Positions 11,331-61,306 of a DNA stretch of 64,000 nucleotides are shown piece after piece. Position numbers and translations under genes: made by a program. A model generated the notes under the pieces. It saw nothing but the letters and a program-made list of their open reading frames with translations, searched no databases and was not told the DNA's origin. Every line of letters begins with the position of its first letter. Position 1 is the stretch's first letter. The DNA comes from a virus, in IMG/VR virus record IMGVR_UViG_3300006802_000086, positions 14,993 through 78,992 of that record; one strand, written 5' to 3'.

Positions 11331-12299
11331 ATGAAAATAACAAAAAAGCAACTAAATGCTCTAATTGAAAGTTTTTTATTGAATGAGGATAGCGAGGTTG
11401 ATTACGAATCTGAAGTGGGCGAAGAAGAAAATGAAACATCCGACAAAAAATCTTCTAGAGGCTACACTAAAGTTAAATATGCATCTCCATACTTAGGTAA
11501 TACACTTTCTGAATTCCAGAACTGGGCGAGTAAAAATGGAATGCCTGGAGAGTTTATGAATTATCTAGATCATCTAGAAAATATTACAAATCGATCGAAA
11601 GAGCTTGGTAACTTAACAGACTTAACAAGCGCCGGAGGTGTCGGTGCAATAGGCGGACAATTGTCAACTGAACAGGGAAGAAAAGCTTATCAACAGGAAC
11701 AAACTGACGGTATAGCACTTTTTAGAAAATTTATGACTAATGCAAATGGGCCATATACGCAACAAGCATTTAGTGCCATTACCGACAAAGCCAAATCAAT
11801 TATTGAATATATTTATTCTAACGGAGGTGCACCAGTCGGACCGGGAACTGAATGGTCACCATCTGCACTTATTGACAAAGTTAGAGGTTCACTCGCGTCA
11901 GTGTTTGGTGACACATCCCCTAGGTTTATGTGCTCTGACTCCGGTGCCATGATTGCATTAGTTCCAATGACTGTTGACTATCAAAAAAATAAGTATGTAC
12001 CTGCTTTAGAGAAAGATATGCCTCACCCTGTCGACGTCGAGCTTAAAAAGATCAGGTCTACATTATCTAAGCCACCAGGATATCAGTCTGATATTGATAT
12101 TAAAATACCTGGTAGCGATAATTATCTTGAGCCGGCATATATCGTTCCTATTCGATCTATAAACGACATAGCTACAAGCCTATCTCTTGTGGATAAATTT
12201 AATGAAAAAAATCAACTTACTAAAAGTGATATCGATCAACAAATTAGAGATAGAGGTCAAGACTTAGTAACAGTTGTAATTGCATTCACGAAGGTATAG
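11331..12299 (+). CDS. Leader-bearing hypothetical protein (putative internal virion protein)
   Basis: N-terminus MKITKKQLNALIESFLLNE; SD AGGAG; ATAATTA upstream. Confidence 0.6.
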   Translation: MKITKKQLNALIESFLLNEDSEVDYESEVGEEENETSDKKSSRGYTKVKYASPYLGNTLSEFQNWASKNGMPGEFMNYLDHLENITNRSKELGNLTDLTSAGGVGAIGGQLSTEQGRKAYQQEQTDGIALFRKFMTNANGPYTQQAFSAITDKAKSIIEYIYSNGGAPVGPGTEWSPSALIDKVRGSLASVFGDTSPRFMCSDSGAMIALVPMTVDYQKNKYVPALEKDMPHPVDVELKKIRSTLSKPPGYQSDIDIKIPGSDNYLEPAYIVPIRSINDIATSLSLVDKFNEKNQLTKSDIDQQIRDRGQDLVTVVIAFTKV

Positions 12300-12336
12300 C
12301 TTAAGCCTAACTATAGTAATAGTAGTTACAAAACTT

Positions 12337-12367
12337 AAAAGAGCAATGTACATTGCTCTTTTTTTTT
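12337..12367 (+). terminator. Rho-independent terminator overlapping the -35 of the next promoter
   Basis: AAAAGAGCAATG-TA-CATTGCTCTTTT inverted repeat plus long T run; TGTACA(12347)-N17-TATAAT(12370). Confidence 0.8.
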
Positions 12368-12412
12368 GTTATAATAAACTATAATTAAAATTGATAAATA
12401 AAAGGAGAATCA

Positions 12413-13015
12413 ATGCTTTGGAAATATAATACGTCACCCCTCATTAAAGAGTACGAACTTCACATGCAACCCGTTATTGTAACAGTCAATAAGTTTGATG
12501 AAGAGTCTGCAAAAGAGTTTCGAAACAAAGTAGCATTAGCTCACAACACTGGCCAAAAAATCATTCCAGTTGTTATTGACTCTTACGGAGGACAAGTATA
12601 TTCCCTAATGTCAATGATATCGACAATCAAAGGGTCAGAGTTGCCTATCGCAACAATCGTCCAAGGTAAGGCTATGAGCTGTGGTGCTATTCTTTTCTCA
12701 TTTGGAAAGGAAGGATATCGTTTCATTGATAGAAATGCAACAGTTATGATTCATGATGTTTCTTCAGGACAACTAGGCAAAGTTGATGAAGTTGTTGCAT
12801 CAGCGAAAGAAACTGAAAGATTAAATGAAATTGTTTATAAAATGATGGCGCAGAATTGTGGTAAAAAAGACGATTACTTTTTAAAACTAGTAGACAAGAA
12901 AAAACACGCTGACTGGTTTTTGGATGCTGAAGAATGTATAAAACATGATCTGGCAAATCATATTAGAATACCAAAAATTAACGTCAATGTGGATGTTAAC
13001 ATTGATTTTGAATAG
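12413..13015 (+). CDS. clpP: ClpP-like protease subunit
   Basis: IDSYGGQV, GKAMSCGA (catalytic Ser), VMIHD (His), DWFLDAEEC. Confidence 0.85.
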   Translation: MLWKYNTSPLIKEYELHMQPVIVTVNKFDEESAKEFRNKVALAHNTGQKIIPVVIDSYGGQVYSLMSMISTIKGSELPIATIVQGKAMSCGAILFSFGKEGYRFIDRNATVMIHDVSSGQLGKVDEVVASAKETERLNEIVYKMMAQNCGKKDDYFLKLVDKKKHADWFLDAEECIKHDLANHIRIPKINVNVDVNIDFE

Positions 13016-13043
13016 TTATCATTATTAACAGTGGGAGAGTCGA

Positions 13044-19997: not shown

Positions 19998-20111
19998 TAA
20001 CTTAAGATAATTTCTCGCATATATATTAATAGATTTAAAAAATCAAAATTAGAAGTTGAGTTTGGGTTATAAGAAATAGAAGTATATTAACAATAACACA
20101 AGGAGATATAT

Positions 20112-27352: not shown

Positions 27353-28360
27353 ATGCATGTCAAAATGTCAGATTTAAAATTAATTGTAGAAAGATTCTTA
27401 AAAGAACAAGAAGGCGACTGGCTAGGTGATGAAGAAGATAATCTAGGTAATTTAGGCGTAAACAGACTTGATCAAAAATTAAAAAATTTAAAAAATTTGT
27501 GTATTGATCAGATTATTGATGAATTATCAAGCTCAAACTTTAGAGATCAAAACATTTCAGAACAGATGTTAAAAGTAGTAGAGCGAAACTTAAAAAATGT
27601 AAGTGTTGTTGTGTCAAAAGTCACAGCTAGTAAAGAAATTAATCTTTCTTCAATGGCTATTTGTTTTACACCTAACATTACACATACCAAAGAAGAAAAT
27701 AATATGGTTTTACAGACACCTAAAATACCTAGCGACATCAATGATATTTCTAAAGATGTGCTTAGTAGATATAATTCTTCTCCTGGAAAATACCCAATCA
27801 TACTTTTTCTAGAAAAAAATATATCCAGTGACATAGATGATCAGAAACTCAAAGATATTTTACTTCACGAATTAGGTCATGTTAAAAACAACACAATAAA
27901 GGCACTATCATTAACAGCATCAGATCAGTCTGGAGAAAATATAGGAAACATTCAGCTTAATCGAGATGAGATAAAGTCAATTTTAAGAAAAGACTTTAAA
28001 GAAAAGTCTGTTAATGAAATAATATTCATATTAACTTCTGAAGGCTGGTTAGACAAAGAACAAAAAGATGAAAATCAAGAGTTAGTAAGTGAGCTTAAAG
28101 AATATTATGATGGTGTTGAAGACTCAAGCAACATGAAAGCAGTTGAAGAGTTAGCTGTCAGAGTATCTGCGCTAAAAAGAAATAGTGAAGCTTTTACAAG
28201 ATTTGTTGTCAATAAAGAAATAGATCGCTATACCAACATATCAAAAGATTATAATCTAGACATTGCTGACATAGTTTTACTTATAAGTAAAAATGCAAAT
28301 ACTAATGATATAAATAAAATTGTCAAAAATAAGCAGTCAAGAAAAAATGTAACTGTATAA
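27353..28360 (+). CDS. Leader-bearing zincin-like metalloprotease
   Basis: N-terminus MHVKMSDLKLIVERFLKE; LLHELGHV (HExxH) and downstream EELAVR. Confidence 0.55.
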   Translation: MHVKMSDLKLIVERFLKEQEGDWLGDEEDNLGNLGVNRLDQKLKNLKNLCIDQIIDELSSSNFRDQNISEQMLKVVERNLKNVSVVVSKVTASKEINLSSMAICFTPNITHTKEENNMVLQTPKIPSDINDISKDVLSRYNSSPGKYPIILFLEKNISSDIDDQKLKDILLHELGHVKNNTIKALSLTASDQSGENIGNIQLNRDEIKSILRKDFKEKSVNEIIFILTSEGWLDKEQKDENQELVSELKEYYDGVEDSSNMKAVEELAVRVSALKRNSEAFTRFVVNKEIDRYTNISKDYNLDIADIVLLISKNANTNDINKIVKNKQSRKNVTV

Positions 28361-30207: not shown

Positions 30208-30243
30208 GCCTAACAGGATTAAGCTAATGCTTTCTTGTTAGGC
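30208..30243. terminator. Hairpin between convergent genes (possible bidirectional terminator)
   Basis: GCCTAACAGGA ... TCTTGTTAGGC inverted repeat. Confidence 0.4.
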
Positions 30244-33200
30244 ACTATTTTAACTAAAATTAAGAAAACTGTATGTGATCTGTTAATTGATATCTTTTTC
30301 ATAGTTCCACCTGTTGTCGATGTGTTGTCTAAATTACCACCAATTAATTTTCCTCCTGAGTAAACGTTCATATGTGCACCTGACTGAGGCTCCGATCCTG
30401 CAAATTTTTTAAAGGTTTTCATACCGCAACCAGAAGGAAGTCCTCTTTTAGAACTATAACCGTTAAGCGAAAAGACGCCGTCTAGAAGGTTTAAGTCAGA
30501 TCTAGATTCGACCTCTTCCCTAGTAAAGGGTAGCAAAACTACTTGCCCGATAAAACTTTCAGGATCATTTTCAACTTCTTGTCTTTTTAACATTAATTGT
30601 GCCCACGGGTATGAAATCCCCATTTGCTTTGGCACGCTGTTTACTATATCGTAGGCAGGATGCGAAGGAGTTACCATTGCATTGAAAGTATGTCCACTCC
30701 AAGCTACTCTATTTAAGTACTTCCAACTATCTTTAATATTGACAGGCATGAATGTATCTGGGTGCATCAGCGCTATTTTTCCGTCACCATGATTTGTAAT
30801 TGCTTGCTTGACAACAATATCATTTATTTTCTTAAGACCTTCTTCTGACTTTTCGCCAAACCCTGTGATTTGTGAAAGTAATCTCTCACCCTCAGCAGCA
30901 CCTGCAGACATGTCCAGCTGTTCAAACTTAATAGGTAAAGAATCCTCATCTAAAAATGCATGTTCCTTCGGATTAAAATTTTTCTTAGAAGCTTTTGAAG
31001 AGTTGTCCTTGACAGAATTCGAAGACTTCGATACTTGTTTTTCTTTTTCAATAATTTTTTTCTGAAGTTCACTATTTCCTTTAAACGATTTACTTACTGC
31101 ATCTGGGCCGCTATAATTACCGTCCTTAATATCTTTGTATACTTTGGCAGGATTAATATAGTTTTCTTTAAATAAATAATTTCTAATTTTACGAACTGAT
31201 TCATTCAAAGGTTCAATCTTAAAATTCTTGTCAACACCTCTTTTTGCCTGTCCTATCTGTCCGGACACGGAATCGACAGCAATAACAATGTCATCAATAT
31301 AGAATTTATAATATCTGTTTTTCATACCTCTGCCAGCTGTATATGTTCCAGGCTCACCTTTTTTATCTCCGTAAGCCATTTCCATTTTTCCACCGGTATC
31401 TTGATTTTTCTTTTTATTGAATTCCTGCGTAGCTTTTTTAATAGCTTCCGGGTCTTGTGCGAGTCTTACCATCTCTGCAACGCCTGAAGGATTTTTCTTT
31501 TTCGGATCATTAAGTACTAAACTAGCCACTTGTGCAGCGTTATTTTTAAATTTAAGAATCGTTTCTTTTTTAACACCCTTGTCAATTGCTGCTTTTATAA
31601 TCATGTCAATATTTTTTTCGATCCAGGCCACCCAAGCTTTGTCTGTGTTAGGCCCCCAATCTCCATCAACTGTAGTACCAATAACACCTTGGACATATTC
31701 AACATCTTTTTTATTATTTTCTATTAAGACACTTTTAATTGCTTTTCTTAAGCTTGCTTCTGTTAAAATCATTTTACCTTTCCTTGTTTTAAAAATATTT
31801 TCTGCCATGGCTTTTTGCTTAGGCATAATTTCTGATTCAATTGTTGCAACAAATTGCTCACCAGGCTTTTCATCAACATGCACACCATCTCTCGAGCTAG
31901 TAACATTTGACTCAAACCACGGGTAGGGATCGATAACATTAATTCTTCCTGACATTCCTAATTGAGACTCAACAGCATCAATACCTGCAACAATCTCTCT
32001 GTTTCTTTTTGCTCGAGTTGCTTTAAATTTTGAAACTTCTCGCTCAGGTTTTCCAGGGGTGTTGACATATGTTGTTTTCTCTGTAGGTTTAACTGCAGGC
32101 GGCGCCAAGACCCAAGTTATTTGTGCGTCTTCTGGGGCATTTTGTAAAATATCTTTTGCCAAATAACTAGCTCTGCTAGAACCGTTGCCGCCTAGCGTAA
32201 GGATAATATTGTTTGTTCTGCTGACTGCATCAATAATTTTATCTTCCCCAAACTCACTCATGACGCCTGCTGGTGTAGCTCCGTTCTTCTGAAAAAAGTT
32301 CTTTCCCTTCGTAGCTGTGCCTAGGCGTTTTCTAATTCCTTTTCCTAGACCGCTGTTGCCTTGACTGTCTGCAATGTATACATACGGGAGAGGTTCGTCA
32401 GAAGATTCTCTCTGTTGTTTCTGTTCGCCACTTTCTCCTTCAAATCCTAATAAAAATAATTTAGCTTCTTCGTGCCTTCTCTTTTCTAGGCCCTGCACAT
32501 ATTCACCCTTGCTAGTTCTAGGTTTTGCATCTATTACATCAGCTGCTTCTTTATAACGACCTTGATTAATTAATTGCGTTATAGACTCGCCTTTATTATT
32601 TTTAAATTTATTTAAAGCACTTGCACCTCCATTAAAGCAATAACTTGCTAATGCAACAAACATGTTATGAGTGATTGGTGCTTTTAATTGTGACTTAAAT
32701 ACTCGTGTATGTTTTGCAACGTCGCTTCCAAAGAGTTCTAGAGCTTGTTGTAAATTCATTTCCTTTGATCCACTTCCTAAAAATTCTTTAAATTTTTCTC
32801 TTTCGTTTGATCTAATTAAGTGCCCAATGCCAATTGTTGGATATCCGCTTGACTCTTCATAGCTATTTATTGTTCTCCCGCCTTTGTCATCATAAACTTT
32901 TGATCTAAAACCTTCACCGCCTTTTATAAATACTTGAATTTCTTTAGACACGTCTTCGTATTGACTAGCACTTTTTAATGTTTGATCCGCAGTAAATTTT
33001 CCACCACCAGCCTTGTTAATTTTTGCCTCAAGACCTTTGACAGCTTTGTTAACAATTTTAGCGTCTGAATTTGAATTATTACCTGGCGAAGTAGGAATAT
33101 TAAGTTTTGACTTTGATTTCACAGCTTTCTTAAGTGTGTCAGCTTTTTTCTTGATAGTATCCTTAAACTCACTGCTAATTTTCTCTGCACCTTTTATGCT

Positions 33201-34280
33201 CCCAGATTCAATTCCTTTTTGGACTTTGTCAATAATTTTGCTTACATCTAATTTTCTCTCTCTTAGAATTTTATATCTATGTCTTTTTAGAATTCTTTGT
33301 TCTTTTAAGTATTCCCCGCCTTTTCCTCTAGGTCTTTGGTAAACTTCACCATCAGTATCAATAGCAACTGCAACATCATCAATCCAAAATTTTAAATAGT
33401 CTTTGTCGATACCTTTGCCTGTCTCTGCTTTTTTAAACCCCATTAATACTGGCTCGTTATTTGTTCCAAATTTTTTAAGATACTCTTCATACTCTTCTTT
33501 AAAAGTTGTATATGCTAACTTAAAATGGTCATTGTTAAAACTACCTCGCCTTCCTAAGGTTTTGTCATCGCTAGGCAGGTCTTTAAGCGCATTTGCAATT
33601 TCTTCTTTAGATTTATTATCATTAATCCAGTCTCGAAACATATCACCCTTATCTTGGTTTAAATCTTTAGGAATTCTTTTAAGCTGCTCATCTGTAAATT
33701 CATATTTTTTATCTTTTGAAGATTTCGATTGTGATTTTGTTCCACCATATTTTTTATCTAAATTCTCACCACCTTTCTTGTTGATAGGTGTCCAAGGTCC
33801 ATTATTTTTACTGTAACTCCACCCAAATTCTGCAGAAGGATCTTTTTTGTATTTGTAAACACCGTCGCCATCATCGTATATTTTTTCTTTAGAAAAATTT
33901 TCTATCTTTCCTATTTGTTCAGCGGCCGGCCCTGAAATAACTTTATATTTGCCATTACCTAAGTCTTCGTAAGTAAAGCCTGATAAGTCTTTGTCAGATT
34001 TAATCCCAAGTTCTTGAGCATTTTTACCTAAAGTTTCTTTTTTGGTAAATTCTTCATAATAAGTTTTAAGCATGTAATAAGCTACTCTTTTCCCATCAGG
34101 AACATCTGCCTTATCTAAAGCTGCCTTTATATTTGGTGCTTTTGTAGATTTAAAACGCAAAGCATTGTCATTAGAGCCAAAACCTGTGTCAAAGCCTATA
34201 TACTTTTTTGATTCTTCTTGCTCGCGAAGAAGTCTTTTGAGTGATTTAATTTTAATAAGTTTGTTTAGATTGTTATTCAT
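30219..34280 (-). CDS. Multidomain virion-associated peptidoglycan hydrolase: GH24 lysozyme + SGNH hydrolase + PG-binding domain + C-terminal CHAP/DUF2272-like domain
   Basis: EGFRSKVYDD...YPTIGIGH...GLEKRRHEE (lysozyme); IADSQ, LGGNG, DGVH (SGNH); VQGVIGTTVDGDWGPNT (PG-binding); AWSG...HMNV...IGGN. Confidence 0.8.
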   Translation of the reverse strand: MNNNLNKLIKIKSLKRLLREQEESKKYIGFDTGFGSNDNALRFKSTKAPNIKAALDKADVPDGKRVAYYMLKTYYEEFTKKETLGKNAQELGIKSDKDLSGFTYEDLGNGKYKVISGPAAEQIGKIENFSKEKIYDDGDGVYKYKKDPSAEFGWSYSKNNGPWTPINKKGGENLDKKYGGTKSQSKSSKDKKYEFTDEQLKRIPKDLNQDKGDMFRDWINDNKSKEEIANALKDLPSDDKTLGRRGSFNNDHFKLAYTTFKEEYEEYLKKFGTNNEPVLMGFKKAETGKGIDKDYLKFWIDDVAVAIDTDGEVYQRPRGKGGEYLKEQRILKRHRYKILRERKLDVSKIIDKVQKGIESGSIKGAEKISSEFKDTIKKKADTLKKAVKSKSKLNIPTSPGNNSNSDAKIVNKAVKGLEAKINKAGGGKFTADQTLKSASQYEDVSKEIQVFIKGGEGFRSKVYDDKGGRTINSYEESSGYPTIGIGHLIRSNEREKFKEFLGSGSKEMNLQQALELFGSDVAKHTRVFKSQLKAPITHNMFVALASYCFNGGASALNKFKNNKGESITQLINQGRYKEAADVIDAKPRTSKGEYVQGLEKRRHEEAKLFLLGFEGESGEQKQQRESSDEPLPYVYIADSQGNSGLGKGIRKRLGTATKGKNFFQKNGATPAGVMSEFGEDKIIDAVSRTNNIILTLGGNGSSRASYLAKDILQNAPEDAQITWVLAPPAVKPTEKTTYVNTPGKPEREVSKFKATRAKRNREIVAGIDAVESQLGMSGRINVIDPYPWFESNVTSSRDGVHVDEKPGEQFVATIESEIMPKQKAMAENIFKTRKGKMILTEASLRKAIKSVLIENNKKDVEYVQGVIGTTVDGDWGPNTDKAWVAWIEKNIDMIIKAAIDKGVKKETILKFKNNAAQVASLVLNDPKKKNPSGVAEMVRLAQDPEAIKKATQEFNKKKNQDTGGKMEMAYGDKKGEPGTYTAGRGMKNRYYKFYIDDIVIAVDSVSGQIGQAKRGVDKNFKIEPLNESVRKIRNYLFKENYINPAKVYKDIKDGNYSGPDAVSKSFKGNSELQKKIIEKEKQVSKSSNSVKDNSSKASKKNFNPKEHAFLDEDSLPIKFEQLDMSAGAAEGERLLSQITGFGEKSEEGLKKINDIVVKQAITNHGDGKIALMHPDTFMPVNIKDSWKYLNRVAWSGHTFNAMVTPSHPAYDIVNSVPKQMGISYPWAQLMLKRQEVENDPESFIGQVVLLPFTREEVESRSDLNLLDGVFSLNGYSSKRGLPSGCGMKTFKKFAGSEPQSGAHMNVYSGGKLIGGNLDNTSTTGGTMKKISINRSHTVFLILVKIVPNKKALA

Positions 34281-35440: not shown

Positions 35441-37597
35441 ATGAGAATTTCAAGGCGACAACTCGGTCTATTGATAGAAAATTATTTACTCCAAGAAACG
35501 CGGCAAGCAAGACAATGGATACAAAATTCAGTCCCAGCTGAAGAACAGCAAGACTATTTAGATGCATACAATAGAGGGGTCACGATTTTATCAGACCTCT
35601 CTTGGATTAAAAAAGTAAGAGGCGGTGAGCCTGTTGCTGATATTGTGGGTGATGTTATAAGCTTTAGGATGGATGACAGTCAAACAAAACTGTTAGCCAA
35701 CGGTTTTCCAACTGATCTAACAAAAAGAAACTATCCCACAGTTGGTGAACTGAGAAGAGCTCTAGCAGTTATTAATACAGATTTAGACATGTCAAGAAAT
35801 CAAGATATCTCTATAGAAACATCAAGCCCTAATATCGATGTTATTGGTAATATAGGCCCGTGGACAATTCTCTTGCCTAAGACAAAAGAAGGATCGACAG
35901 CTTGTGACATTAGCGGTAAAGATACCACTTGGTGCACTACCAAAACAAGAGGACAAAACTTATTTTATAATTATGCAAAAGATGATTTATTCTTATATTA
36001 TGTAATGGATTACAGTCGCACCCCGGATGACCCATACAAAAGCCAAGACAGAGCATGCGTAGAAAACAACGATAGTCGTCTATCAGTTGGAATTATTAGA
36101 GGTGAAATAACCTTGGAAGGTGAAGATGGCGGTGTTTCTGTTGACGCTGCGAATAAAGGACTCTATCCCGAAGACTTAGAAAGTGCTCTAGGTCAATATC
36201 ATGATCAGGTAATTAATTTAATCAAAACCAACTTTGATTCTCACCAGTCACATCCGGGTAGAGAAAAATTTAGACAAGCAGCACAAAATATTGTTATTAT
36301 GCGTGATGCAGTTAGAGACTTGACGCCGCCTGCCAAGGCTGATTTTTTAGGTGAAGTATCCTATTCAACAAGCATGACACCCGAAGTTGTAGTCTATTTA
36401 TTTAATTTTGCTAACGAACCAATTAGAACTAAAGACTACAATACGGATGACTGGTTTTTAGAGCATGAAAGTAAAGGCAGGATTATTGAAAATATTTTTC
36501 TTAATGAGCCTAGTGCAAGCATTCCTGTGCGACTAAGAAAGTCTTTAATAGTAGAGCTAACTAAGAAACTAGGTGAAGAAGGCTTATACGCCTACCAAGA
36601 TGCACGTGGATGGTACGTCGGAACGGCAGCATCAGAACTACTAAATTCACAAAAAGAAGTTAAATCATATTTAGACCTATTGCTAGAATATTCAAATAGC
36701 CGATCTTACGATACTACGTTTGGAGATCCTATAGAGCAAATTTTAGAATCCTATTTAAGAAAACTCGACTTAAGTGATCCTGAGGTGTATCAGATAACTT
36801 TGAGTTTTATTCCTAACGCAAGAAGCACAAATTCAATTGTCCCTATTGTTAAAAATGAAAGTATCGAAGAGAGTGTACTAGAGGACATTCTTATAAATAC
36901 GCCACTCTTGCAAAACAAAGACAAAATGAGTCATGTTGCTTACGAATTATTAAATGCTCGCGCGCTCGCCATCCAACAAGTAATGGCCGAAAGAAAATTT
37001 GGAAACGGATTAAGCGCTGAGTTTTTACAAAAACATGCAAGAAGACTAACTAACGATTTTAAAGATAGAATGAGTTTAACAAAGTTGCTTTTTCAAGAAA
37101 ATTTGCCTAAAAGCTTGTTTGACGAAATATTTGATTACGTCGATACCATTGTTAAGACACCGCGGACACCTGAACAGCAAAGAAACTACATTGTAGTACT
37201 AAAGGACATGTTGAGGCACCCTTTCATGCCTGACGATGTAATAAATGAATATTCTAATGACCCAGAATTTCATGAACCACTATTGTCGAGGGTTTGGAGC
37301 ACTAACACAACTAACCCTGAAGTAGTTGAAAAGATTCTAGAAACTACAAAAGATCCGATCCCTCCATATTTTCATGACATACTAGCTAATAGTAACATGA
37401 CAAAAAGAACTTATGAAATATTAATAAACTTGCTTGATGAAGGGCTAGCTGATATGCAAGAACTAGGCGCAGTTGGAATGTTTGAGTTCAATCTAGATCC
37501 ACCTCACAGTGCTGAAGATGTAAGAAGATGCTTTGAGCACGCTTACGCCGCTGGACTAGCTAAATTAAGAGAGAGAAGGGCAGAGTTTGAGATATAA
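35441..37597 (+). CDS. Leader-bearing protein with TxWCT domain and C-terminal helical repeats
   Basis: MRISRRQLGLLIENYLLQE; PKT..GS...TTWCTT...NLFYNY; paralogous to 44236..46581. Confidence 0.65.
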   Translation: MRISRRQLGLLIENYLLQETRQARQWIQNSVPAEEQQDYLDAYNRGVTILSDLSWIKKVRGGEPVADIVGDVISFRMDDSQTKLLANGFPTDLTKRNYPTVGELRRALAVINTDLDMSRNQDISIETSSPNIDVIGNIGPWTILLPKTKEGSTACDISGKDTTWCTTKTRGQNLFYNYAKDDLFLYYVMDYSRTPDDPYKSQDRACVENNDSRLSVGIIRGEITLEGEDGGVSVDAANKGLYPEDLESALGQYHDQVINLIKTNFDSHQSHPGREKFRQAAQNIVIMRDAVRDLTPPAKADFLGEVSYSTSMTPEVVVYLFNFANEPIRTKDYNTDDWFLEHESKGRIIENIFLNEPSASIPVRLRKSLIVELTKKLGEEGLYAYQDARGWYVGTAASELLNSQKEVKSYLDLLLEYSNSRSYDTTFGDPIEQILESYLRKLDLSDPEVYQITLSFIPNARSTNSIVPIVKNESIEESVLEDILINTPLLQNKDKMSHVAYELLNARALAIQQVMAERKFGNGLSAEFLQKHARRLTNDFKDRMSLTKLLFQENLPKSLFDEIFDYVDTIVKTPRTPEQQRNYIVVLKDMLRHPFMPDDVINEYSNDPEFHEPLLSRVWSTNTTNPEVVEKILETTKDPIPPYFHDILANSNMTKRTYEILINLLDEGLADMQELGAVGMFEFNLDPPHSAEDVRRCFEHAYAAGLAKLRERRAEFEI

Positions 37598-38124: not shown

Positions 38125-38214
38125 ATGAAGCTGTCAAGAATTCAATTACGAAGATTGATTTTTGAAGCTTAAGCTTCAGTAGTCAATGAAGAAGAAGTAA
38201 AAAATGCTAATTAA
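38125..38214 (+). pseudogene. Orphan leader remnant MKLSRIQLRRLIFEA*ASVVNEEE
   Basis: SD GGAG; leader consensus; in-frame TAA at 38170 created by an AAGCTT tandem duplication. Confidence 0.6.
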
Positions 38215-39097
38215 AAAATCTGAATTAAAAAAATTAATTGAAAGCTTTTTAAACGAAGAAGAGGATACACCTAAAAAACCTACAATCGTTGAAAAACCAA
38301 AAACAAAGGCCTTCAATCCTTCAACAAATCCTCAGCAGAATAAAATGTTTTACCCAGTAATGTCTGGAAATCATGAAGGAGGATTTTTAGCAGAAGTTGA
38401 AGGATCTGGCTTCTATATGTTATTAGATGAAGACGAGGTCTCAAGATGGAATAATCCAGATGCAGTAGTTAAAAAAATCGATGCAGTTAAAAGAGCCATA
38501 GAGGCTAACGGCTTTTCCATACCTGAAGCAAAGTTAATCAAACATGTTAATGACGGAAGAGTTGTATTTGCAACAAAACTAGTAGAACCGGTATCATCTG
38601 ACGAAAAAGTAATTTACAAAATATATGACGCAGTTTACGACACTATTTTAGATAGTTCAGCAACAGCACTCGGCTTTGATATTTTAAGCCCTTCACTTCA
38701 ACTATTAAGCAGTGAAATCAATGCAGCGCAAGCAGCAAAAAAAATGTCCCAAGGAAGATTTTTAGATGCCGGAATTGCAGCCATCGCATCATTACCCTAT
38801 TTTGTACCCGGAAAGGTATTAACCCCTCTTAAATCACTAAGTGTAACCAATCAATCTCGAGCGATGAACTTGATTTATAGTTCTCCGGCGATCCAACAAG
38901 CCTTGTGGTCAATTGTTCATTGGCTTCAAGAACACGAAATGCAAATTAGGGAAGTGCTTGAAAAGATAGTGTCTGTATGTGAGTTCACATACGGCGAATT
39001 TAAAGAAGGAGCAGGAATGGCCATTGACTATACATGGCGTCTACTTAAGGCATTTTTTAAAAGCTTGACAAATGAAGAATTTAAACTGCCTAGTTAA
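38204..39097 (+). CDS. Leader-bearing hypothetical protein
   Basis: MLIKKSELKKLIESFLNE; hydrophobic FLDAGIAAIASLP segment. Confidence 0.65.
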   Translation: MLIKKSELKKLIESFLNEEEDTPKKPTIVEKPKTKAFNPSTNPQQNKMFYPVMSGNHEGGFLAEVEGSGFYMLLDEDEVSRWNNPDAVVKKIDAVKRAIEANGFSIPEAKLIKHVNDGRVVFATKLVEPVSSDEKVIYKIYDAVYDTILDSSATALGFDILSPSLQLLSSEINAAQAAKKMSQGRFLDAGIAAIASLPYFVPGKVLTPLKSLSVTNQSRAMNLIYSSPAIQQALWSIVHWLQEHEMQIREVLEKIVSVCEFTYGEFKEGAGMAIDYTWRLLKAFFKSLTNEEFKLPS

Positions 39098-39114: not shown

Positions 39115-40038
39115 ATGCTAATTAAAAAATCTGACTTAAAAAAAATAATTAACGTCTACTTAAGAGAACAAGCTTCTATATCCAAAGTCATGGCAAAGCA
39201 AACCACAAAGAAAAATTTACAATCTGATCTTGACCAAGGAACAGTTGAAAGTGTATTAGGACTTCTTGGTGACGCGTCAGAAGTATATGCGGCAATCACA
39301 GATGAAGCAAAAGCAGTTCAATTTTCTGAAAATTTTATTAATGCACTGTATGTTGCTTCTCCGGAAATTGTTGATTTTTTAAGTAATCCTAAGATTAGGA
39401 ATGCCGTCGTCAAATTAAAATCTTTAATAAAATCGTCAACAATTGTTGTAAAGCTTGGTTCACTGACAGTACTGTCTGAAGTATTAGGGTTTTTAATGTT
39501 AGTACTTGCAGTACCTAGAATGGCATATCAAGTTTTAGATAATTTAGCATCTGTTGAAGGTCAATTAGTTAATTTAAAGAAAGCACCTGGCCGGAAAAAT
39601 GAAGGAAAGCCTTTAAAACCTGAAGATCTTTCTGATAAATTTACAACAGGAGGCCTAGCAAAACTAGGAATAAAAACCAAAAATGATCTATTTCTTATTT
39701 TAGCTGCAAACATAATATCTGAAAAAGAAGGACAAAACATCGGATTTAAGATGCTCCAAGATGGGATAATTTCAAATGAATTCTGGGGTGAAATATTAAA
39801 AGCTAGAAAAAAAGTCAAAAGCCGGCCAATTGATGATATGAATGAATTGATTGAAAAAGCAGATAAATTACCAAAAGAAATAAAACACAATGCAATTGTG
39901 CTAGGTTTTGTAACAAATGTTTTAGGCGGATTATTTGCAATCCAATCTGAAAATATTCAGCAGACACTCTCTATAAAAGGATTTTCCCCTGATGATATAA
40001 TTAAGTTTTCTGCGCAAGCATATGATAGCATTAAATAA
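39115..40038 (+). CDS. Leader-bearing hypothetical protein with hydrophobic segments
   Basis: MLIKKSDLKKIINVYLRE; VLSEVLGFLMLVLAVP. Confidence 0.65.
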   Translation: MLIKKSDLKKIINVYLREQASISKVMAKQTTKKNLQSDLDQGTVESVLGLLGDASEVYAAITDEAKAVQFSENFINALYVASPEIVDFLSNPKIRNAVVKLKSLIKSSTIVVKLGSLTVLSEVLGFLMLVLAVPRMAYQVLDNLASVEGQLVNLKKAPGRKNEGKPLKPEDLSDKFTTGGLAKLGIKTKNDLFLILAANIISEKEGQNIGFKMLQDGIISNEFWGEILKARKKVKSRPIDDMNELIEKADKLPKEIKHNAIVLGFVTNVLGGLFAIQSENIQQTLSIKGFSPDDIIKFSAQAYDSIK

Positions 40039-43626: not shown

Positions 43627-43662
43627 ATACATATATATGCATGCATTACTTATGAGGTGTCT

Positions 43663-44208
43663 ATGAAGATTACAAGAATGGAATTAAGAAGACTAATTCA
43701 AGAGTCTTTAAGCATGAACGAAAGTTTGTCACTAATCATTAGCGGCGTTTTGGCTGCCCCTGTGCTTTTAGAAGGGCTAGCCCACATAATAGAAAAAGCA
43801 GGGAAAAAGTTTGGAAGAGAAAAGGCCGAGCTCAAAGCAGAAAATCTCGAGCACTTTGCTCATAAAGTACACGGTGTGTATGAAGCACCGATTAAATTTT
43901 TAATTAAAAAGTCAGCAAAAGCTGCAAAAAAAGAGATATCAGAAGAAAAAGTACAAAAATATACTGATATTATTTTTGGTATTATTATTGCATGCTTAAT
44001 GGCTAGCGCAGGTTTATCAATACTAGAACACGCTAAACACTTAGGACCGCATGCTGAACTAGTAACTACAGGAATGTTAGCTCTAGAATCTGCTGATATT
44101 GTTGTCGAAGGAGTTGAATTATCACAAATTATTTCTCGTCTCAAAAATCCGGCGAGTCATGAAAAATTAGCAGCAGCTATTGAAGAGCATTCAAAATCAC
44201 ATCATTAA
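43663..44208 (+). CDS. Leader-bearing membrane-type protein
   Basis: MKITRMELRRLIQESLSMNE; hydrophobic helices; His-rich. Confidence 0.65.
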   Translation: MKITRMELRRLIQESLSMNESLSLIISGVLAAPVLLEGLAHIIEKAGKKFGREKAELKAENLEHFAHKVHGVYEAPIKFLIKKSAKAAKKEISEEKVQKYTDIIFGIIIACLMASAGLSILEHAKHLGPHAELVTTGMLALESADIVVEGVELSQIISRLKNPASHEKLAAAIEEHSKSHH

Positions 44209-44235: not shown

Positions 44236-46581
44236 ATGAAAATAACACGTAGACAGTTAAGTACATTGATAGAAAATTACTTAAAGCAAGATAATATACT
44301 TTTTGAAATAAAAAAGAAATCATTTAATCAGTTTATAGCAAGAGGTTTAATGACCCAGCAAGAATTTGATATATACGTTTTTCGAAATGACTGGGTTGCG
44401 CCTTTTACTGATCCTGTAATACGCAAAGTTCTCTTCAATACATTGAACGCTGATGAAGGGCATAGTGTTAGAGAAATTGCTGAGCGTGGTCAAGAGTTTT
44501 TGGAAAGAATTGTTGATCTTGCCAGAACACCTGACCCGGACAACCCAGGTCAAAATATGCTCAAGTCCACACGCGTAAGAGGTACTTCAGGAGTTAATCC
44601 TAATGATATCATAGATATAAATAGCAAGATAGATGTTGACAACCCTGACAATACAGCAGCAACTTATAATGATATGTCAAGCTACTTAGAGAACCGATCT
44701 GGTATTGCTAAGAGAGCTGACGTGCTAACAAACGCAATTCAGGCAGGATTTGACGGCACTGATACATCTAATTTTGAAGTAATTTCTGCACCGGGAAGCC
44801 CTTATGTTGTGACTTATCCTAAAACCTATAAAGGATCGATAGCTGTTGCACGTATGGGCCCAGACTTTCAGTATTACGATCCGAACACCTCTGCAGGTCG
44901 ACAAGTGATTGGAAAAATGACATGGTGTACATCAGTTGATAGTGCAGGAAACATGTTCTTAAATTATCACCGCGCACAAAATCTGCACATGTACTACTTA
45001 GTCAAAGTTAAAGACTATAACCCTACTAGCCCAGATAGAAAACTTTGCTTAAGTTTTGCCAAGACAGACTCCGGAGACGTAATATATCGAACCGGGCACT
45101 CATCTGTCGACGGAGATAACAAAGCACTAAGTGAGAAAGACGCAAAAGAATACATTGGCAAGTCATTGTTCGAAACAATTGTCAATGATGTCAAAAGACC
45201 AGAAAGATTAGTAATCAATCCTGTAAAATACTACAAGTCAATAAATTTAGAGCAATATATTGACATGAGAAACGCACATCAGAATGAACAAGATACAAAG
45301 CTTTTTGCTAAAGAAGCTGAACAAATTGCAAAATATACAGAAAATAATGACATTATAAAAGCAATCCTAGGTGATAACAATCCAATTGTTTCAGGAGTTG
45401 CTTATCCTTATATAAAGGACAGTAAAGTCTTTGACTCAATTATAGAAAAAAGCAATGGAAACATAGATGTTTTTATTAACCTCTTTAAGGCAAAAGCACT
45501 ACAACCTCAGCATATCAAGAAAATTTATATGACGTCTAGGCAAGGAGGAAAAGTTGATCCTGACATTATGGTATATGCTACAGAGCACGCATCAACGCCC
45601 CTCGATGTATTGAATTTAGTTTTTGATGATGCGCTAAATGATCGGTTAATTCCAAAAGAGTCTGGTTTTAAAACGTATAATTCACTCTTTGTAATATGTC
45701 AATTAGTTAGGAGTAAAAATGCTTCATCTGATTTACTTAGAAAAGTGTATGCATATTTAGACAAAAATAGAAATATTGATTATACTAACAGCTATATTCC
45801 ATTAATCGCTAGCCATCCAAACACACCTCCTGATTTAATTGCAAAAGAAATCGAAGGTCTAGTAACACCCTCAAGCAATCCTTTGTCAGCACACTCCGGA
45901 ACATCATCGTCAGGTCATAGTAGGACAGATGCCGCGATGATGATAAGAAGAATCATCAGTGGTATTAGCAATGAAATGTTTGAAGCAATTGGTGAAAAAA
46001 CATTTAAAAATATATTAGACTATTTTGTCATACAAGATTTTGCAAATTATCAACCGTTAGCTATAGCAAATCGATTTACAGAAAACCATAGATTGTCCTT
46101 GGAATATGCGCTAAAAATGTTTGAATATGCAATGTTTAAAGAAAACGAGCCTAAACCTCGAGGCAAAGAAAGTTTAACCTTAAAATGGGCAGATCTAGCA
46201 ACTGCATTTGCTGAGAATCTATCAATGTACGTTTATCCTGTAAGCATTTATATTGATGAAAATCCACATTACAATGATTACATGATGGAAGTTGCAATGC
46301 CTCTCTCTGAACAAGACTTAAATGGTACAACAGAGATACATGGTCTTTTAAATGGATTTTATGGACAATCTCATACAATACAGCTCCAAAAGTCAATAGA
46401 AGAATATATTCAAAAATATAGCGAACAGCCTGAAAACGATAATCCTGACTATAATATCTATGCACAACAGTTGTTGAAAATAGTGAAAGAAATAAATAGA
46501 AAAAAGCAGGAGTATGCTCAATATTCTCGAAGAACAGGGTTCCAATTCCCTAGCAAGTATAGCAATATGTTTGAATATTAA
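44236..46581 (+). CDS. Leader-bearing protein with TxWCT domain and LRV/HEAT-like repeats
   Basis: MKITRRQLSTLIENYL; PKTYKGS...MTWCTS...NMFLNY; IASHPNTPPDLI and HASTPLDVL repeats. Confidence 0.65.
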   Translation: MKITRRQLSTLIENYLKQDNILFEIKKKSFNQFIARGLMTQQEFDIYVFRNDWVAPFTDPVIRKVLFNTLNADEGHSVREIAERGQEFLERIVDLARTPDPDNPGQNMLKSTRVRGTSGVNPNDIIDINSKIDVDNPDNTAATYNDMSSYLENRSGIAKRADVLTNAIQAGFDGTDTSNFEVISAPGSPYVVTYPKTYKGSIAVARMGPDFQYYDPNTSAGRQVIGKMTWCTSVDSAGNMFLNYHRAQNLHMYYLVKVKDYNPTSPDRKLCLSFAKTDSGDVIYRTGHSSVDGDNKALSEKDAKEYIGKSLFETIVNDVKRPERLVINPVKYYKSINLEQYIDMRNAHQNEQDTKLFAKEAEQIAKYTENNDIIKAILGDNNPIVSGVAYPYIKDSKVFDSIIEKSNGNIDVFINLFKAKALQPQHIKKIYMTSRQGGKVDPDIMVYATEHASTPLDVLNLVFDDALNDRLIPKESGFKTYNSLFVICQLVRSKNASSDLLRKVYAYLDKNRNIDYTNSYIPLIASHPNTPPDLIAKEIEGLVTPSSNPLSAHSGTSSSGHSRTDAAMMIRRIISGISNEMFEAIGEKTFKNILDYFVIQDFANYQPLAIANRFTENHRLSLEYALKMFEYAMFKENEPKPRGKESLTLKWADLATAFAENLSMYVYPVSIYIDENPHYNDYMMEVAMPLSEQDLNGTTEIHGLLNGFYGQSHTIQLQKSIEEYIQKYSEQPENDNPDYNIYAQQLLKIVKEINRKKQEYAQYSRRTGFQFPSKYSNMFEY

Positions 46582-53943: not shown

Positions 53944-54378
53944 ATGAAAATATCAAGACAGCAACTAAAAAAATTAATTTTAAATTCTTTAAACGAAGGA
54001 ATTTTTGGAGATATTAGTGACAAGATGAACTATGGTGCAAAAACCAAAGATCTTTTAAAAAACTCATCGCAAGATGCTCTTGATATATTTAAAGCTTGTA
54101 AAGGTTTGGGCACAGACGAAGAAGCAATTACAAAAATTATTACTAAAAGATCGAATGATCTGCATAAGTTATATATAGAATTTAATAACTTAATTGTTAA
54201 CTATACAAAGGCTAATGCAGGATTTAAATCAGTCGATAGTGCATTAGTCGACAAAAACTATAATCAAGATTTAATTGCCTGGTTAGAGGAAGAGGGCATG
54301 GATAACGAAGCAGTTTTGATTGAGGAAGCTATAGCAGTAGCAAAAGTACAAAGAAAAGAAATTCCAGCAGCTGTTTAA
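53944..54378 (+). CDS. Leader-bearing protein with an annexin-like repeat
   Basis: MKISRQQLKKLILNSLNE; DALDIFKACKGLGTDEEAITKIITKRS. Confidence 0.7.
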   Translation: MKISRQQLKKLILNSLNEGIFGDISDKMNYGAKTKDLLKNSSQDALDIFKACKGLGTDEEAITKIITKRSNDLHKLYIEFNNLIVNYTKANAGFKSVDSALVDKNYNQDLIAWLEEEGMDNEAVLIEEAIAVAKVQRKEIPAAV

Positions 54379-54393: not shown

Positions 54394-54747
54394 ATGAAAA
54401 AATTAAATAGAAGTCAAGTAAGAAAAGTACTCTTAGAAGAACTAATTGCCTCAGGTGATAAGATATCTGAAATGGAGCAATTTGCTAAAAGTAAGTCAGG
54501 AAAAAAAGTTATGAAAACTGCTGAGTCGATTAAAAAGGCTGGTGTGACAATGCATGAAATAGCCCAAGACCAAACTGGCGCAATGAGAAACACTTTAGGA
54601 AGTGTATCTAAGTTTGTATACGAACTAGGTAATGCCTTGTCAGGAATGGACAGTCTTGAAGAAGGTGAGTCTGTGTCAAGCAAGTTACCGACTGTCCAAG
54701 AATTTAAAAATGTTCTTAAAGAACTACAAAAATTAGAAAAAATGTAA
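54394..54747 (+). CDS. Leader-bearing hypothetical protein
   Basis: MKKLNRSQVRKVLLEE. Confidence 0.6.
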   Translation: MKKLNRSQVRKVLLEELIASGDKISEMEQFAKSKSGKKVMKTAESIKKAGVTMHEIAQDQTGAMRNTLGSVSKFVYELGNALSGMDSLEEGESVSSKLPTVQEFKNVLKELQKLEKM

Positions 54748-55027: not shown

Positions 55028-55312
55028 ATGAGAAAACTAACTAGAAGACAATTAAGAAACCTGATTAGCGAAGCAATATTTCGTGAAGGATACGGTATCG
55101 ATACTGGATCAAAAAAAAGAGAAATAGGTAACTCTTCTTTTGAAAAAGCCCAAGAAGACGCAAAAAAGAACGGAAAGTCGTATTTTGTTAACAAAAAAGA
55201 TGAAGTCATTGTTTTTGATGAAGACGGCAATGCCTCAAAAAAACCTGACATGTCAAACAAAGATGCTTTTGATGCAGCTGACGGTACCGTGCATTATGTA
55301 GGGTCGTTATGA
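55028..55312 (+). CDS. Leader-bearing small protein
   Basis: MRKLTRRQLRNLISEAIFRE. Confidence 0.6.
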   Translation: MRKLTRRQLRNLISEAIFREGYGIDTGSKKREIGNSSFEKAQEDAKKNGKSYFVNKKDEVIVFDEDGNASKKPDMSNKDAFDAADGTVHYVGSL

Positions 55313-58661: not shown

Positions 58662-59075
58662 ATGAGAAGTAGAATTATTGAGAATATTCTCAAAAACAAT
58701 AATGTCAATCCGGATTTTAAAAATGTTAACTCAGCAATGCGACGTCTTTTAGGATATACAGACTATAACGAAGACATAGATGACAATAATCCTATTGACC
58801 CTAAACCATCCGGGTGGCTTCAATCAAGCGACAGCCAAAAAAATTATTTAGTTAAAACTTATGACTTGTCTTCTAAAAAATTTGTTATGTATTTTTTAAG
58901 CGAGTTATATGACTTATCTTCACAACATAACCATTATCCGGAGATACACATAAAAGAAAACGAAGTAACAGTTGTTTTATACACTGAAATGATGAACGAT
59001 GTATCAGACGTCGATATTTCTTTATCAAAACAGATCGATGACATAATTGAAGACATTGATATTATCAGGTTTTAA
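58662..59075 (+). CDS. Pterin-4-alpha-carbinolamine dehydratase-like protein
   Basis: HNHYPEI...VTVVLYT...VSDVDISLSKQID. Confidence 0.65.
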   Translation: MRSRIIENILKNNNVNPDFKNVNSAMRRLLGYTDYNEDIDDNNPIDPKPSGWLQSSDSQKNYLVKTYDLSSKKFVMYFLSELYDLSSQHNHYPEIHIKENEVTVVLYTEMMNDVSDVDISLSKQIDDIIEDIDIIRF

Positions 59076-59077
59076 TT

Positions 59078-59422
59078 ATGTCTTTTTTCGTAAGTGATAG
59101 TCTTAAAGGTGTCATTAGCGAAGATGACATAGCAATAAATACAAAAACTGATTCTACTTTTTTACTTTGCTTAAATGACGTTGAACACGATATAAAAGAA
59201 ATTTATATTAAAGAAAAATATTTTATAATTGACATTAGTGTTAGCATGTCTAAGATCGATTCAGTGGTCAGGCGTTCAAAAATTAGCAATGCGTTTTTTA
59301 AAATAGGAAAGTCTATAATTAATTTAAAAAGTGATAGTTATAAAATTATGTCTATTAAAAGTTGTGATTTGTTAAACTTTGTCGACATGCAAATACTTAT
59401 ACAATATAACGAGGAATTATAA
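59078..59422 (+). CDS. Hypothetical protein
   Basis: ORF in operon context. Confidence 0.55.
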   Translation: MSFFVSDSLKGVISEDDIAINTKTDSTFLLCLNDVEHDIKEIYIKEKYFIIDISVSMSKIDSVVRRSKISNAFFKIGKSIINLKSDSYKIMSIKSCDLLNFVDMQILIQYNEEL

Positions 59423-59426
59423 AGCA

Positions 59427-60125
59427 ATGAAAGTCACTAGTGAAAAACAACTAATTAAAATATTAAAAATAATTTCTGAAGAATCTGTTAAAAAATCAAG
59501 AAAAATTTTATCTGAGTCGTCATATGATATCCAAGATATGTATATGCAAGGAATTGAACAAGACGAAAATCTTTATGGTGTCAGCTTGACAGAACAAGAT
59601 GATGAAGATGAAGAAGTTCCTGAAGATGAAGAAGTTCCTGAAGACGAAGAAACAGATACTAAAAGTGATGAAGAAAACGAAGAAGCTGAACCAACAGAGG
59701 AAGAACTCGATCCTGAAAACTTTGGTGTCTCATTTGATGGTGTTGTTAAGGCAATTAATAGTCTAAGAGCAGGCCGATCAACAAAAGACAAAGAAATTAA
59801 AGAAGAACTTTTAGAGTACTATGAAAGAATTAGCGAAGACGAAAGAAAAGTTCTCTATCTTTTTCTCAGAGAATTGTCTAAGATATTACAAGGAGCACTA
59901 GACGGTGGCGATGCAATCGATCCATCCGACCCTCCATTTAATATTGATATTCATGTTGGAGGTGAAGATGATTCAGATGATCAACCAGAAGGTGAATCTG
60001 ATATAAGTGGTGAAGAAACTGACCGGTCAGGTGAAGAAAATACTGCACCGCCAATTAAAGTCAACGAAAGACAAGAGCTTAATGAGATTAGAAGAAAAGT
60101 TCAGAGATTAATGAAGAGATTTTAA
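59427..60125 (+). CDS. Acidic leader-bearing protein (putative prohead core/internal protein)
   Basis: MKVTSEKQLIKILKIISEES; INSLRAGRS motif; 18-nt repeat encoding EDEEVP. Confidence 0.6.
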   Translation: MKVTSEKQLIKILKIISEESVKKSRKILSESSYDIQDMYMQGIEQDENLYGVSLTEQDDEDEEVPEDEEVPEDEETDTKSDEENEEAEPTEEELDPENFGVSFDGVVKAINSLRAGRSTKDKEIKEELLEYYERISEDERKVLYLFLRELSKILQGALDGGDAIDPSDPPFNIDIHVGGEDDSDDQPEGESDISGEETDRSGEENTAPPIKVNERQELNEIRRKVQRLMKRF

Positions 60126-61306
60126 TGAAAATACGTGTATCAGACTTAGAAAGAATTATTGAATCGAATTTAGGCAGAGATTATAAGAGATCTTTGCATG
60201 AAATTACACTTGTTCAGGGACTTAAGTCTGCATCCGGGACATTTTCTTTTGAGGCGTGTGACTTAAGTGAAATTGAGTTTACAAAAGGGTTTAAGGCATT
60301 ACGTGAATTTAATGATAACGCTGAAACTAAGGAATTGACACGGGAAATTAGTGCTGCCAAAGACGAGGTAGACAACATGGCATCGACTGCATCAGATGCA
60401 GAAGTTGCTGCATCTTTACAAAAATATGAAGACTTGCAAAATAGCATGAGGAGTTTAACTGACTCATTTTTTGGTGATTTCGCACCAGGTCTAGTCAATG
60501 ACACGTTTATACAAAATATCACACAATTAGGAAACATTGCGATGCTTGGAGCCTTGGGTCCAGGAAGTGTTGTTTATTGTGCTCTAATGAAAACAATTGT
60601 CAAATCAATTAATGCTTTCATCGATGCTTATACAGATACATCTCCTGAAAAAGACAAAGAGATCAAAAATCCAGAATTTAATCCATTTTATAACGCTTTG
60701 GAGAGAGCAGCTGATAAGCTCTCTGATGAACTAACTTCATATCAGCGATCGATATTTTCAGCAGCAATTGAAAATCTCAATTTGAATGATCGAGAAAAAT
60801 CCTTGTTCAAATTCGTTTATATAAGATTTGCGAATACAATTATTGAAGAAAGAAATCTTGTTGCCACAACTGATTCCTCAGGTGATAGAGTAAGTGTTGT
60901 TAAATATCCATCCTCAACCGGAACCGGGATTGAAAATGTATCAATTGAAGAAGCAAAACGTCGCGACAGAGATAAATTTATTAGAAACATAGACGGATAT
61001 AAAAACAAAAATAAAAACGGTGACGATATTCAAGCAAAATTATATTTATCAGGTTTGATTGCTTCTGTAAGTTCTCGGGACGATTTAATAGAAAAGCTAA
61101 TTGAATTTTCGAAAAGTTATATAGAATCTGAAGAAGTAGACCCAACAACGGGAGAAACAATAACGAAGGTCGAGGTAGAAAGTAAAAAACTCAGTCAAAG
61201 AGACTTAAAAGACATGTCAAAAGAAATCATTACAAGCTATGAAAACGATACTGATGTAGGCACATTGGTCGACAATATTATAGCAAATTTGCAATCAATT
61301 CCTTGA
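60125..61306 (+). CDS. Leader-bearing hypothetical protein
   Basis: MKIRVSDLERIIESNL...LHE. Confidence 0.6.
   Translation: MKIRVSDLERIIESNLGRDYKRSLHEITLVQGLKSASGTFSFEACDLSEIEFTKGFKALREFNDNAETKELTREISAAKDEVDNMASTASDAEVAASLQKYEDLQNSMRSLTDSFFGDFAPGLVNDTFIQNITQLGNIAMLGALGPGSVVYCALMKTIVKSINAFIDAYTDTSPEKDKEIKNPEFNPFYNALERAADKLSDELTSYQRSIFSAAIENLNLNDREKSLFKFVYIRFANTIIEERNLVATTDSSGDRVSVVKYPSSTGTGIENVSIEEAKRRDRDKFIRNIDGYKNKNKNGDDIQAKLYLSGLIASVSSRDDLIEKLIEFSKSYIESEEVDPTTGETITKVEVESKKLSQRDLKDMSKEIITSYENDTDVGTLVDNIIANLQSIP

Follow-up and report, generated by a model that had tools for sequence, protein, structure and literature searches.

A shared N-terminal leader on hypervariable proteins of an uncultured T4-like marine phage and its probable role as a capsid address label

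The DNA considered here, referred to as the window, is a stretch of 64,000 nucleotides that corresponds to bases 14,993 to 78,992 of the IMG/VR virus record IMGVR_UViG_3300006802_000086, a linear contig of 78,992 bp; the element under study is a short peptide leader shared by the N-termini of a series of proteins whose bodies are otherwise unrelated. With a CheckV completeness of 26%, the contig is a fragment of the genome, roughly 300 kb in size, of an uncultured T4-like marine phage. Regarding its gene content, the part of the contig upstream of the window holds baseplate-size genes and those of the tail sheath and tube, and a GroEL gene is truncated at the 3' end. In the window, Pfam recognised a gp32-like single-stranded DNA-binding protein, RecA, two 5'-3' exonucleases, a DnaB-type helicase, DnaE, ClpP and an amidase, together with a class I/II ribonucleotide reductase (RNR) and many enzymes of nucleotide and sugar-nucleotide metabolism.

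As for its relatives, no cultured phage is close, and the nearest helicase from a cultured phage is 38% identical to that of the window; related records were found in IMG/VR. The window helicase is 73% identical to that of G012, a 141-kb contig with the same gene order from tail sheath to GroEL, while for several records of 135-293 kb the identity is 62-65% (62% for G004, a complete genome of 293,409 bp with terminal repeats). The 625-aa protein encoded at 20112 led to a further contig, G021, which also bears leader open reading frames (ORFs), and G022, from the same sample as G021, is syntenic too.

An earlier note on the window had listed some 15-16 sites sharing a basic, amphipathic N-terminus that ends in L/I-x-E, and all the starts that it quoted were found where it had placed them. 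For membership, a hidden Markov model (HMM) was built from 12 of these leaders and run on the 2,879 six-frame stop-to-stop segments of the whole contig; the leader and leader-like genes, in window coordinates and with their bit scores, are the following.

11331..12299, + strand: leader protein of 322 aa, MKITKKQLNALIESFLLNE and then an acidic linker; HMM 24.4 bits, leave-one-out 16.7; no Pfam or PHROG match.
11277: promoter-like motif CATATATA, 54 nt upstream of the 11331 gene.
27353..28360, + strand: looser leader protein of 335 aa, MHVKMSDLKLIVERFLKE; seed at 22.1 bits, leave-one-out 4.3; CATATATA upstream at 27319.
35441..37597, + strand: leader protein of 718 aa with a helical-repeat-like body; HMM 21.5 bits, leave-one-out 14.0.
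38125..38172, + strand: apparently decapitated leader, an ORF of 15 codons that form a perfect leader (MKLSRIQLRRLIFEA) and then a stop; non-seed, HMM 12.4 bits; 32 nt upstream of the next leader gene.
38204..39097, + strand: leader protein of 297 aa, MLIKKSELKKLIESFLNE; HMM 22.9 bits, leave-one-out 20.0; paralogue of 39115 at the DNA level of the leader.
39115..40038, + strand: leader protein of 307 aa, MLIKKSDLKKIINVYLRE; HMM 21.9 bits, leave-one-out 13.4.
43663..44208, + strand: leader protein of 181 aa with two moderately hydrophobic segments; HMM 22.8 bits, leave-one-out 11.2; CATATATA upstream at 43630.
44236..46581, + strand: leader protein of 781 aa; HMM 26.7 bits.
53944..54378, + strand: leader protein of 144 aa with one annexin-type repeat (GLGTDEEAITKIIT..RS); HMM 26.3 bits, leave-one-out 18.7; PF00191 at 25.7 bits against a cut-off of 25, a partial match.
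54394..54747, + strand: loose leader protein of 117 aa, MKKLNRSQVRKVLLEE; seed at 19.6 bits, not recovered in leave-one-out.
55028..55312, + strand: leader protein of 94 aa, MRKLTRRQLRNLISEAIFRE; HMM 23.3 bits, leave-one-out 9.9.
59427..60125, + strand: loose leader protein of 232 aa, very acidic; seed at 14.1 bits, not recovered in leave-one-out.
60125..61306, + strand: leader protein of 393 aa, MKIRVSDLERIIESNL; seed at 21.0 bits, leave-one-out 6.0.
30219..34280, - strand: lysozyme-domain protein of 1353 aa (PF00959, 6.5e-18) whose N-terminus, ..KSLKRLLRE, is loosely leader-like; CATATATA upstream at 34325(-).

The 12 seeds scored 14-27 bits and were followed by the stub at 38125. The next-best match, with 9.2 bits, was an out-of-frame ORF inside dnaE at 41090, which starts with MKVTKRQLKSQL and matches the leader in part, probably by chance; all the remaining segments were at or below 7.3 bits. 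All genuine matches begin with the initiator Met of a long ORF, with no internal ones in the six frames of the contig, so that the leader is confined to N-termini, as the earlier note had it. In leave-one-out, the seeds at 11331, 35441, 38204, 39115, 43663, 44236, 53944 and 55028 kept 9.9-20.4 bits and ranked just after the other seeds, while those at 60125 and 27353 were marginal; the tally is 8-9 robust leaders, four looser ones and the 15-codon stub. The list of sites stands for the 12 seeds, 54394 and 59427 being loose members, and for the stub; it does not stand for 34280(-), 56073 and 52346. The 1353-aa protein had a leader HMM score of -4.2 bits at its start, with no internal leader match and no internal repeats, and the other two sites show a vague resemblance, that at 52346 being evenly conserved along its length with the G012 orthologue. 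This last gene (52346-53023), which is kept in both G012 and G022, encodes a Fe/Mn superoxide dismutase C-terminal domain (PF02777, 6e-17) after an N-terminal extension.

The local consensus of the leader is M-K-I-[TS]-R-x-Q-L-x-x-L-I-E-x-x-L-x-x-E, over about 13-19 residues, where L-I-E puts a Glu at position 13 and another L-x-E follows at positions 17-19. The motif [LI]-x-E occurs within the first 21 residues of all 13 leader proteins, compared with 16 of the 65 other proteins and 20% of internal windows of 21 residues, which agrees with the ending proposed for these N-termini; the shared leader is real and far beyond chance. Regarding its composition, it is charged and amphipathic throughout, with K/R, Q or E every 3-4 residues and no hydrophobic stretch; since the hydrophobic core is absent, a signal peptide of the Sec or Tat type was excluded.

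As for the bodies, homologues were searched for by BLAST (E<1e-5) in G012, G021, G022 and G004 after removal of the leader, the comparison set being the other window genes of at least 60 aa: one of the 13 leader genes had a homologue, against 46 of the 54 others (Fisher p=2e-7). The sole gene with a homologue was 59427, 41% identical to G012_100043. In positional orthologues, the leader is 43-75% identical and the rest 8-36%; with respect to G012, these values are 75 and 8% for 55028, and 50 and 19% for 60125. Leader genes occupy variable islands between conserved genes, and G012 has other leader genes in the slots flanking dnaE. No family of Pfam or PHROGs is common to the bodies, the latter having none for the tag either, and the single annexin repeat of 53944 is the only domain match among the members; helical repeats occur in the 44236 and 35441 bodies, and the 35441 protein lies near viral LRV/HEAT-like clusters in the ESM Atlas (0.91; a lead only). 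The claim of unrelated bodies was correct in that there is no common family and in the annexin and helical repeats, and wrong in counting a protease and a muramidase among them: no leader protein has a protease body, ClpP being leaderless, and the lysozyme protein is not a member. None of the replication or nucleotide-metabolism enzymes recognised by Pfam carries the leader, as the same source had noticed.

The 44236 family permits a closer comparison of the two parts of the protein. It has 34 environmental homologues, the nearest 23 of which have a recognisably similar leader; in 12 homologues, identity is 77% for the leader and 35% for the body. At least 90% of 31 sequences, which go down to ∼24% of full-length identity, keep the Glu at position 13. 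The protein consists of the leader helix, a conserved α/β domain (approximately residues 57-357) and an armadillo/HEAT-like solenoid; the AlphaFold model has a predicted local distance difference test (pLDDT) score of 83.7, and its C-terminal part matches importin/armadillo repeats. The invariant residues of the α/β domain are H76, C231, D235, H251 and C271. This domain gave no convincing fold match (best Z 4.4; no Foldseek match below E 0.09), and a profile search of the PDB sequences returned nothing meaningful; the family may be an as yet unrecognised enzyme.

The leader is not special to this phage. A degenerate DNA pattern for M-K-I-T-[basic]-x-Q-L-[basic]-x-[LIM]-I, which fixes positions 1-12 only, was run on IMG/VR and matched at least 120 stretches, often several times each. 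The matches listed comprised 214 distinct ORFs with a median length of ∼110 aa and unrelated bodies; at the positions left free by the pattern, these had K/R at 13 in 82%, Glu at 14 in 98% (background 9%) and Glu at 15 in 77% of the cases. Because the free position 14 is Glu, I-x-E is present in 98% of the 214 ORFs among the matches listed. A stricter pattern gave 1-20 matches per large record, nearly all on one strand, and the reversed pattern, used as control, gave none. G004 contains ∼30 tag ORFs, mostly in two tandem arrays; this genome and G022 carry the canonical tag on arrays of small genes, and the HMM of the window and that of the environmental sequences match each other's leaders. 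There is, then, a widespread MKITKxQLKxIIKEE tag of uncultured T4-like phages, of which the window leader is a local variant; it differs from the canonical form in having Glu at position 13 and L-x-E at 17-19, and its bearers are larger and scattered, compared with the tandem arrays of genes of 70-260 aa found elsewhere. One near-match to the pattern was also found in an uncultured phage of 484 kb.

That it is the peptide that is conserved is indicated by the codons, which differ between the copies: synonymous codons vary among the leaders (CTA/TTA/CTC; AGA/CGT/CGA/AGG) and the encoded residues are retained up to position 19. Only the adjacent pair 38204/39115, with its first 10 codons almost identical, departs from this and looks like a recent duplication. 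This pair bears on a different explanation of the shared start, as a feature of the nucleic acid, either a repeat for recombination or cassette shuffling or an A-rich 5' coding region for translation initiation. The location of the leader genes in variable islands would suit it, and so would the 38125 stub, which has the look of a recombination scar, or of a decapitated cassette, within such an island; yet the free variation of synonymous codons in the other copies, the contrast between leader and body identity in the 44236 family and the conservation of a downstream Glu at a position on which no selection was made all speak against a DNA feature, which is considered very improbable.

Turning to the function of the leader, the genes for head assembly of G012 and G004 follow the order terminase and portal, a protease of the Peptidase_S77 family (T4 gp21-type), small proteins with tag-like starts, an acidic scaffold and a gp23-type capsid protein; the head module of these relatives is probably a picture of the part missing from the contig, and this phage would then have the same S77 protease. 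The conserved small proteins of the module that lie just downstream of the protease have tag-like starts, as in MSKITKNDLKGIVKECLIE. The 625-aa protein of the window (20112-21989), considered as a candidate capsid protein, was discarded: it did not match Gp23, and the gp23-type genes of the relatives are distinct from it. A side observation on these latter genes is that G004 has two in tandem at 176269-180150 (632 and 629 aa), identical in their first 75 residues, and that G001 also has two.

In T4, maturation removes 65 residues from gp23 and 9 from gp21 (PMC9958956), and gp21 cleaves according to the rule L/I-x-E (PMC9026906). The S77 proteins of the relatives, aligned to T4 gp21, keep the catalytic His and Ser. 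The N-terminus of the G012 protease, MQLLRE|, aligns with the self-cleavage site of T4 gp21, MNEPQLLIE|, and the maturation site of T4 gp23, FLTE|AEIGG, aligns with QLLRE|AN in G012 and QVLRE|AN in G004. Since both T4 sites align with a conserved L-R-E in these relatives, the L/I-x-E specificity of the protease has very likely been kept in the lineage.

Some of the relatives also have a second shared N-terminal tag, MNLLREYIRELL-x-E, present on four proteins of G004 (∼1951-3792 and 292314) and two of G022 (600-1672). It resembles the N-terminus of S77 (MQLLRE in G012), and the first 25 residues show a strong enrichment of L[LI]RE; this tag is absent from the window, save for the ..RLLRE of the 1353-aa protein.

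Because the leader ends in the motif of a T4-type head protease and is common in uncultured phages, it is most likely a capsid address label. It is considered probable, by analogy with the T4 capsid-targeting sequence (CTS), that it acts as a capsid-targeting propeptide processed by the T4-type head protease, analogous and not homologous to the CTS and used on far more proteins. During head assembly, the amphipathic leader helix of ∼13-19 residues would dock the protein onto the prohead scaffolding core; the gp21-type serine protease (Peptidase_S77) would then cut the leader off after the Glu of L/I-x-E, and the mature protein would stay inside the capsid and be ejected with the DNA.

Regarding the link with the head protease, Peptidase_S77 was found in 16 of 22 tag-bearing records, including all five of those at least 90% complete; to our knowledge, however, all T4-like phages have S77, and because of this the co-occurrence is confounded with lineage. 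Among 29 smaller tag fragments (4-45% complete), the single-copy S77 gene was present on 14, compared with 5.4 expected from completeness (P=1.3e-4), a figure partly inflated by the bias of the catalogue toward head-gene fragments. Adjacency, unlike this count, is unaffected by the bias: at least 6 of the 14 fragments have a tag gene whose start is no more than ∼1 kb from the protease gene. The G050 fragment runs from a tag gene and a small ORF through the protease, three tag genes and a conserved basic protein to the scaffold and the capsid protein, and in G046 two tag genes stand immediately before the protease; these tag genes hold the position taken in T4 by the prohead-core genes 67, 68 and 22, around gene 21.

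A ClpP gene accompanies the tag with nearly the same frequency, in 14 of 20 records and four of the five complete ones. The gene of the window is the following.

12413..13015, + strand: ClpP-family protease (PF00574 at 3e-24), leaderless; the sole protease found.

ClpX recognises some N-terminal motifs that begin Met-basic-hydrophobic, and the leader could by analogy be an N-terminal degron or chaperone tag. Its reader would be the phage ClpP, with an unfoldase or adaptor of the host as intermediary, or else the phage GroEL, and the tag would time the destruction or the folding of accessory proteins. ClpP is conserved in the lineage and the GroEL gene lies at the contig end; as ClpP accompanies the tag almost as often as S77 does, co-occurrence does not discriminate between the two proteases. 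The position of the 11331 gene, between the RNR and ClpP genes, does not help the degron: leader genes are absent from that slot in G012, G021 and G022, where ClpP directly follows RNR, and the adjacency to 11331 is an accident of insertion. By its gene order, ClpP is a conserved gene of the replication/metabolism block, with 11331 an insertion beside it; this arrangement, together with the use of Peptidase_S77 in the head modules of the relatives, also led to the rejection of ClpP as the head protease. In addition, the complete genome G003 has a tag ORF and no ClpP, no unfoldase gene was identified, and the fixed L/I-x-E and the linkage to the head operon are left unexplained, so that a degron is judged improbable.

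The tag could also be a recognition sequence for a modifying enzyme, as in ribosomally synthesised and post-translationally modified peptides, with a radical-SAM/SPASM protein as the enzyme; there is no such domain among the annotated genes of the window, and PF04055 is absent from the complete G004, despite its ∼30 tag genes, and present in one of five close relatives, which makes this explanation extremely improbable.

Compared with T4, the capsid-targeting reading has a clear precedent. The T4 CTS (MKTYQEFIAE, found twice in the T4 record) occurs on IPII and IPIII, with related propeptides on IPI and Alt, and is removed by gp21; like the leader, it is a short N-terminal peptide on unrelated hypervariable proteins. 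The two have in common an initial Met-Lys and a final L/I-x-E, and the tag lineage has the gp21-type protease and a gp23-type capsid protein with a homologous L-x-E site. The internal proteins of T-even phages have diverse bodies that share only the CTS (PMC3012670, PMC9026906), and the hypervariable cargo of the leader mirrors them. As for differences, T4 has a handful of such proteins, whereas there are 12-13 in 64 kb here and ∼30 in G004, with cargo of up to 700-780 aa and mostly acidic, and targeting and cleavage by way of the tag are predictions. A second comparison is with giant phages of the phiKZ type (phiKZ gp175, 201phi2-1, SPN3US gp245), in which a diverged gp21-like protease trims many head proteins after Glu and a large packaged set is ejected (PMC9026906, PMC5694885, PMC10052503). 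In both systems, many head proteins would be trimmed after Glu; according to the reviews, the cut in the phiKZ-like phages lies in a very short motif, with no mention of a single shared leader, whereas here one recognisable leader is reused. The earlier proposal of a portable tag, similar to the T4 CTS and distinct from it, is supported in part, by the N-terminal position, the L/I-x-E, the hypervariable cargo, the S77 of the relatives and the tag genes that flank the protease gene in other phages; it needs correction in that the tag belongs to a wider group of phages and in that the contig has no head genes.

Several observations weigh against the capsid-targeting reading, in addition to the lineage confounding, the catalogue bias and the co-occurrence with ClpP given above. 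Genes for terminase, portal, capsid and the S77 head protease are lacking on the whole contig, at its 26% completeness, and most leader genes of the window are scattered among replication and metabolism genes, outside any head operon. Sequence similarity between the tag and the T4 CTS is not significant, the two sharing only the Met-Lys start and the I-x-E end, and the tag is longer (13-19 residues against 10). Seven cultured T4-like or related phages scanned with the pattern (Syn9, S-PM2, HTVC008M, P-SSM2, Flavobacterium phage immuto, Microcystis phage Mel-JY01 and Rhodothermus phage RM378) gave no tag. Some of the cargo is very large (718-781 aa), the 43663 and 39115 proteins contain hydrophobic segments, and most bodies are acidic (9 of 13 have a pI of 4.1-5.9), in contrast to the basic internal proteins of T4.

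These last two properties would suit an uncleaved leader acting as a docking or oligomerisation helix, for the virion exterior, the tail or baseplate, a membrane or an intracellular phage compartment; the leader is amphipathic and was modelled, at modest confidence, as a helix over residues 5-16. A docking helix, however, has no need for a near-invariant Glu in L/I-x-E, found at an unselected position in almost all the ORFs among the matches listed, and it leaves unexplained the tag genes between the protease and scaffold genes and the tag-like starts of the head-core proteins; this alternative is therefore regarded as unlikely.

As for the capsid address at the level of the clade, the chances are about even that a large group of uncultured marine T4-like phages, with genomes of up to ∼300 kb, employs a single portable leader, 14-19 residues long, as its general address for capsid loading. 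If this is true, the sequence itself tells which proteins are packaged and ejected, and these amount to dozens of hypervariable proteins per genome, including multi-domain ones of 700-780 aa; the principle of the T4 internal proteins would be scaled up from a handful to one gene in five in some regions, and to thousands of ocean proteins. The tag would mark the proteins that marine T4-like phages deliver to the host, prime candidates for counter-defence or host take-over, and with its cognate protease site it would constitute a ready-made system for loading proteins into capsids. A short, recognisable tag is a direct handle both for metaproteomics and for such loading. In the literature searched, no description was found of the tag motif, or of a CTS in cyanophages; a tblastn of the leader-bearing ORFs against cultured phages gave nothing useful, probably owing to low-complexity masking and short length.

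Regarding transcription, copies of the motif CATATATA precede, by 27-94 nt, four leader or leader-like genes (motif at 11277, 27319, 34325(-) and 43630), the tail-tube gene (contig 3605), the 625-aa gene of the structural region at 20112 (motif at 20018) and the gene of a DHH phosphoesterase at 50823 (motif at 50789). On these positions, it is a candidate late promoter, a local hint; its lack of conservation in G012, a further point against the capsid reading, rules it out as a late promoter of the whole lineage. The restriction of the leader to late genes, expected in the earlier note, finds its sole support in this motif, through the four genes and the tail-tube gene, and is weakened by the same lack of conservation.

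Finally, the window holds, at 12413-14401 and at the 3' end, a set of genes conserved in the lineage, formed by ClpP, a Dps/ferritin-like protein of 154 aa (judged by eye only), an amidase with a peptidoglycan-binding domain, and GroEL.

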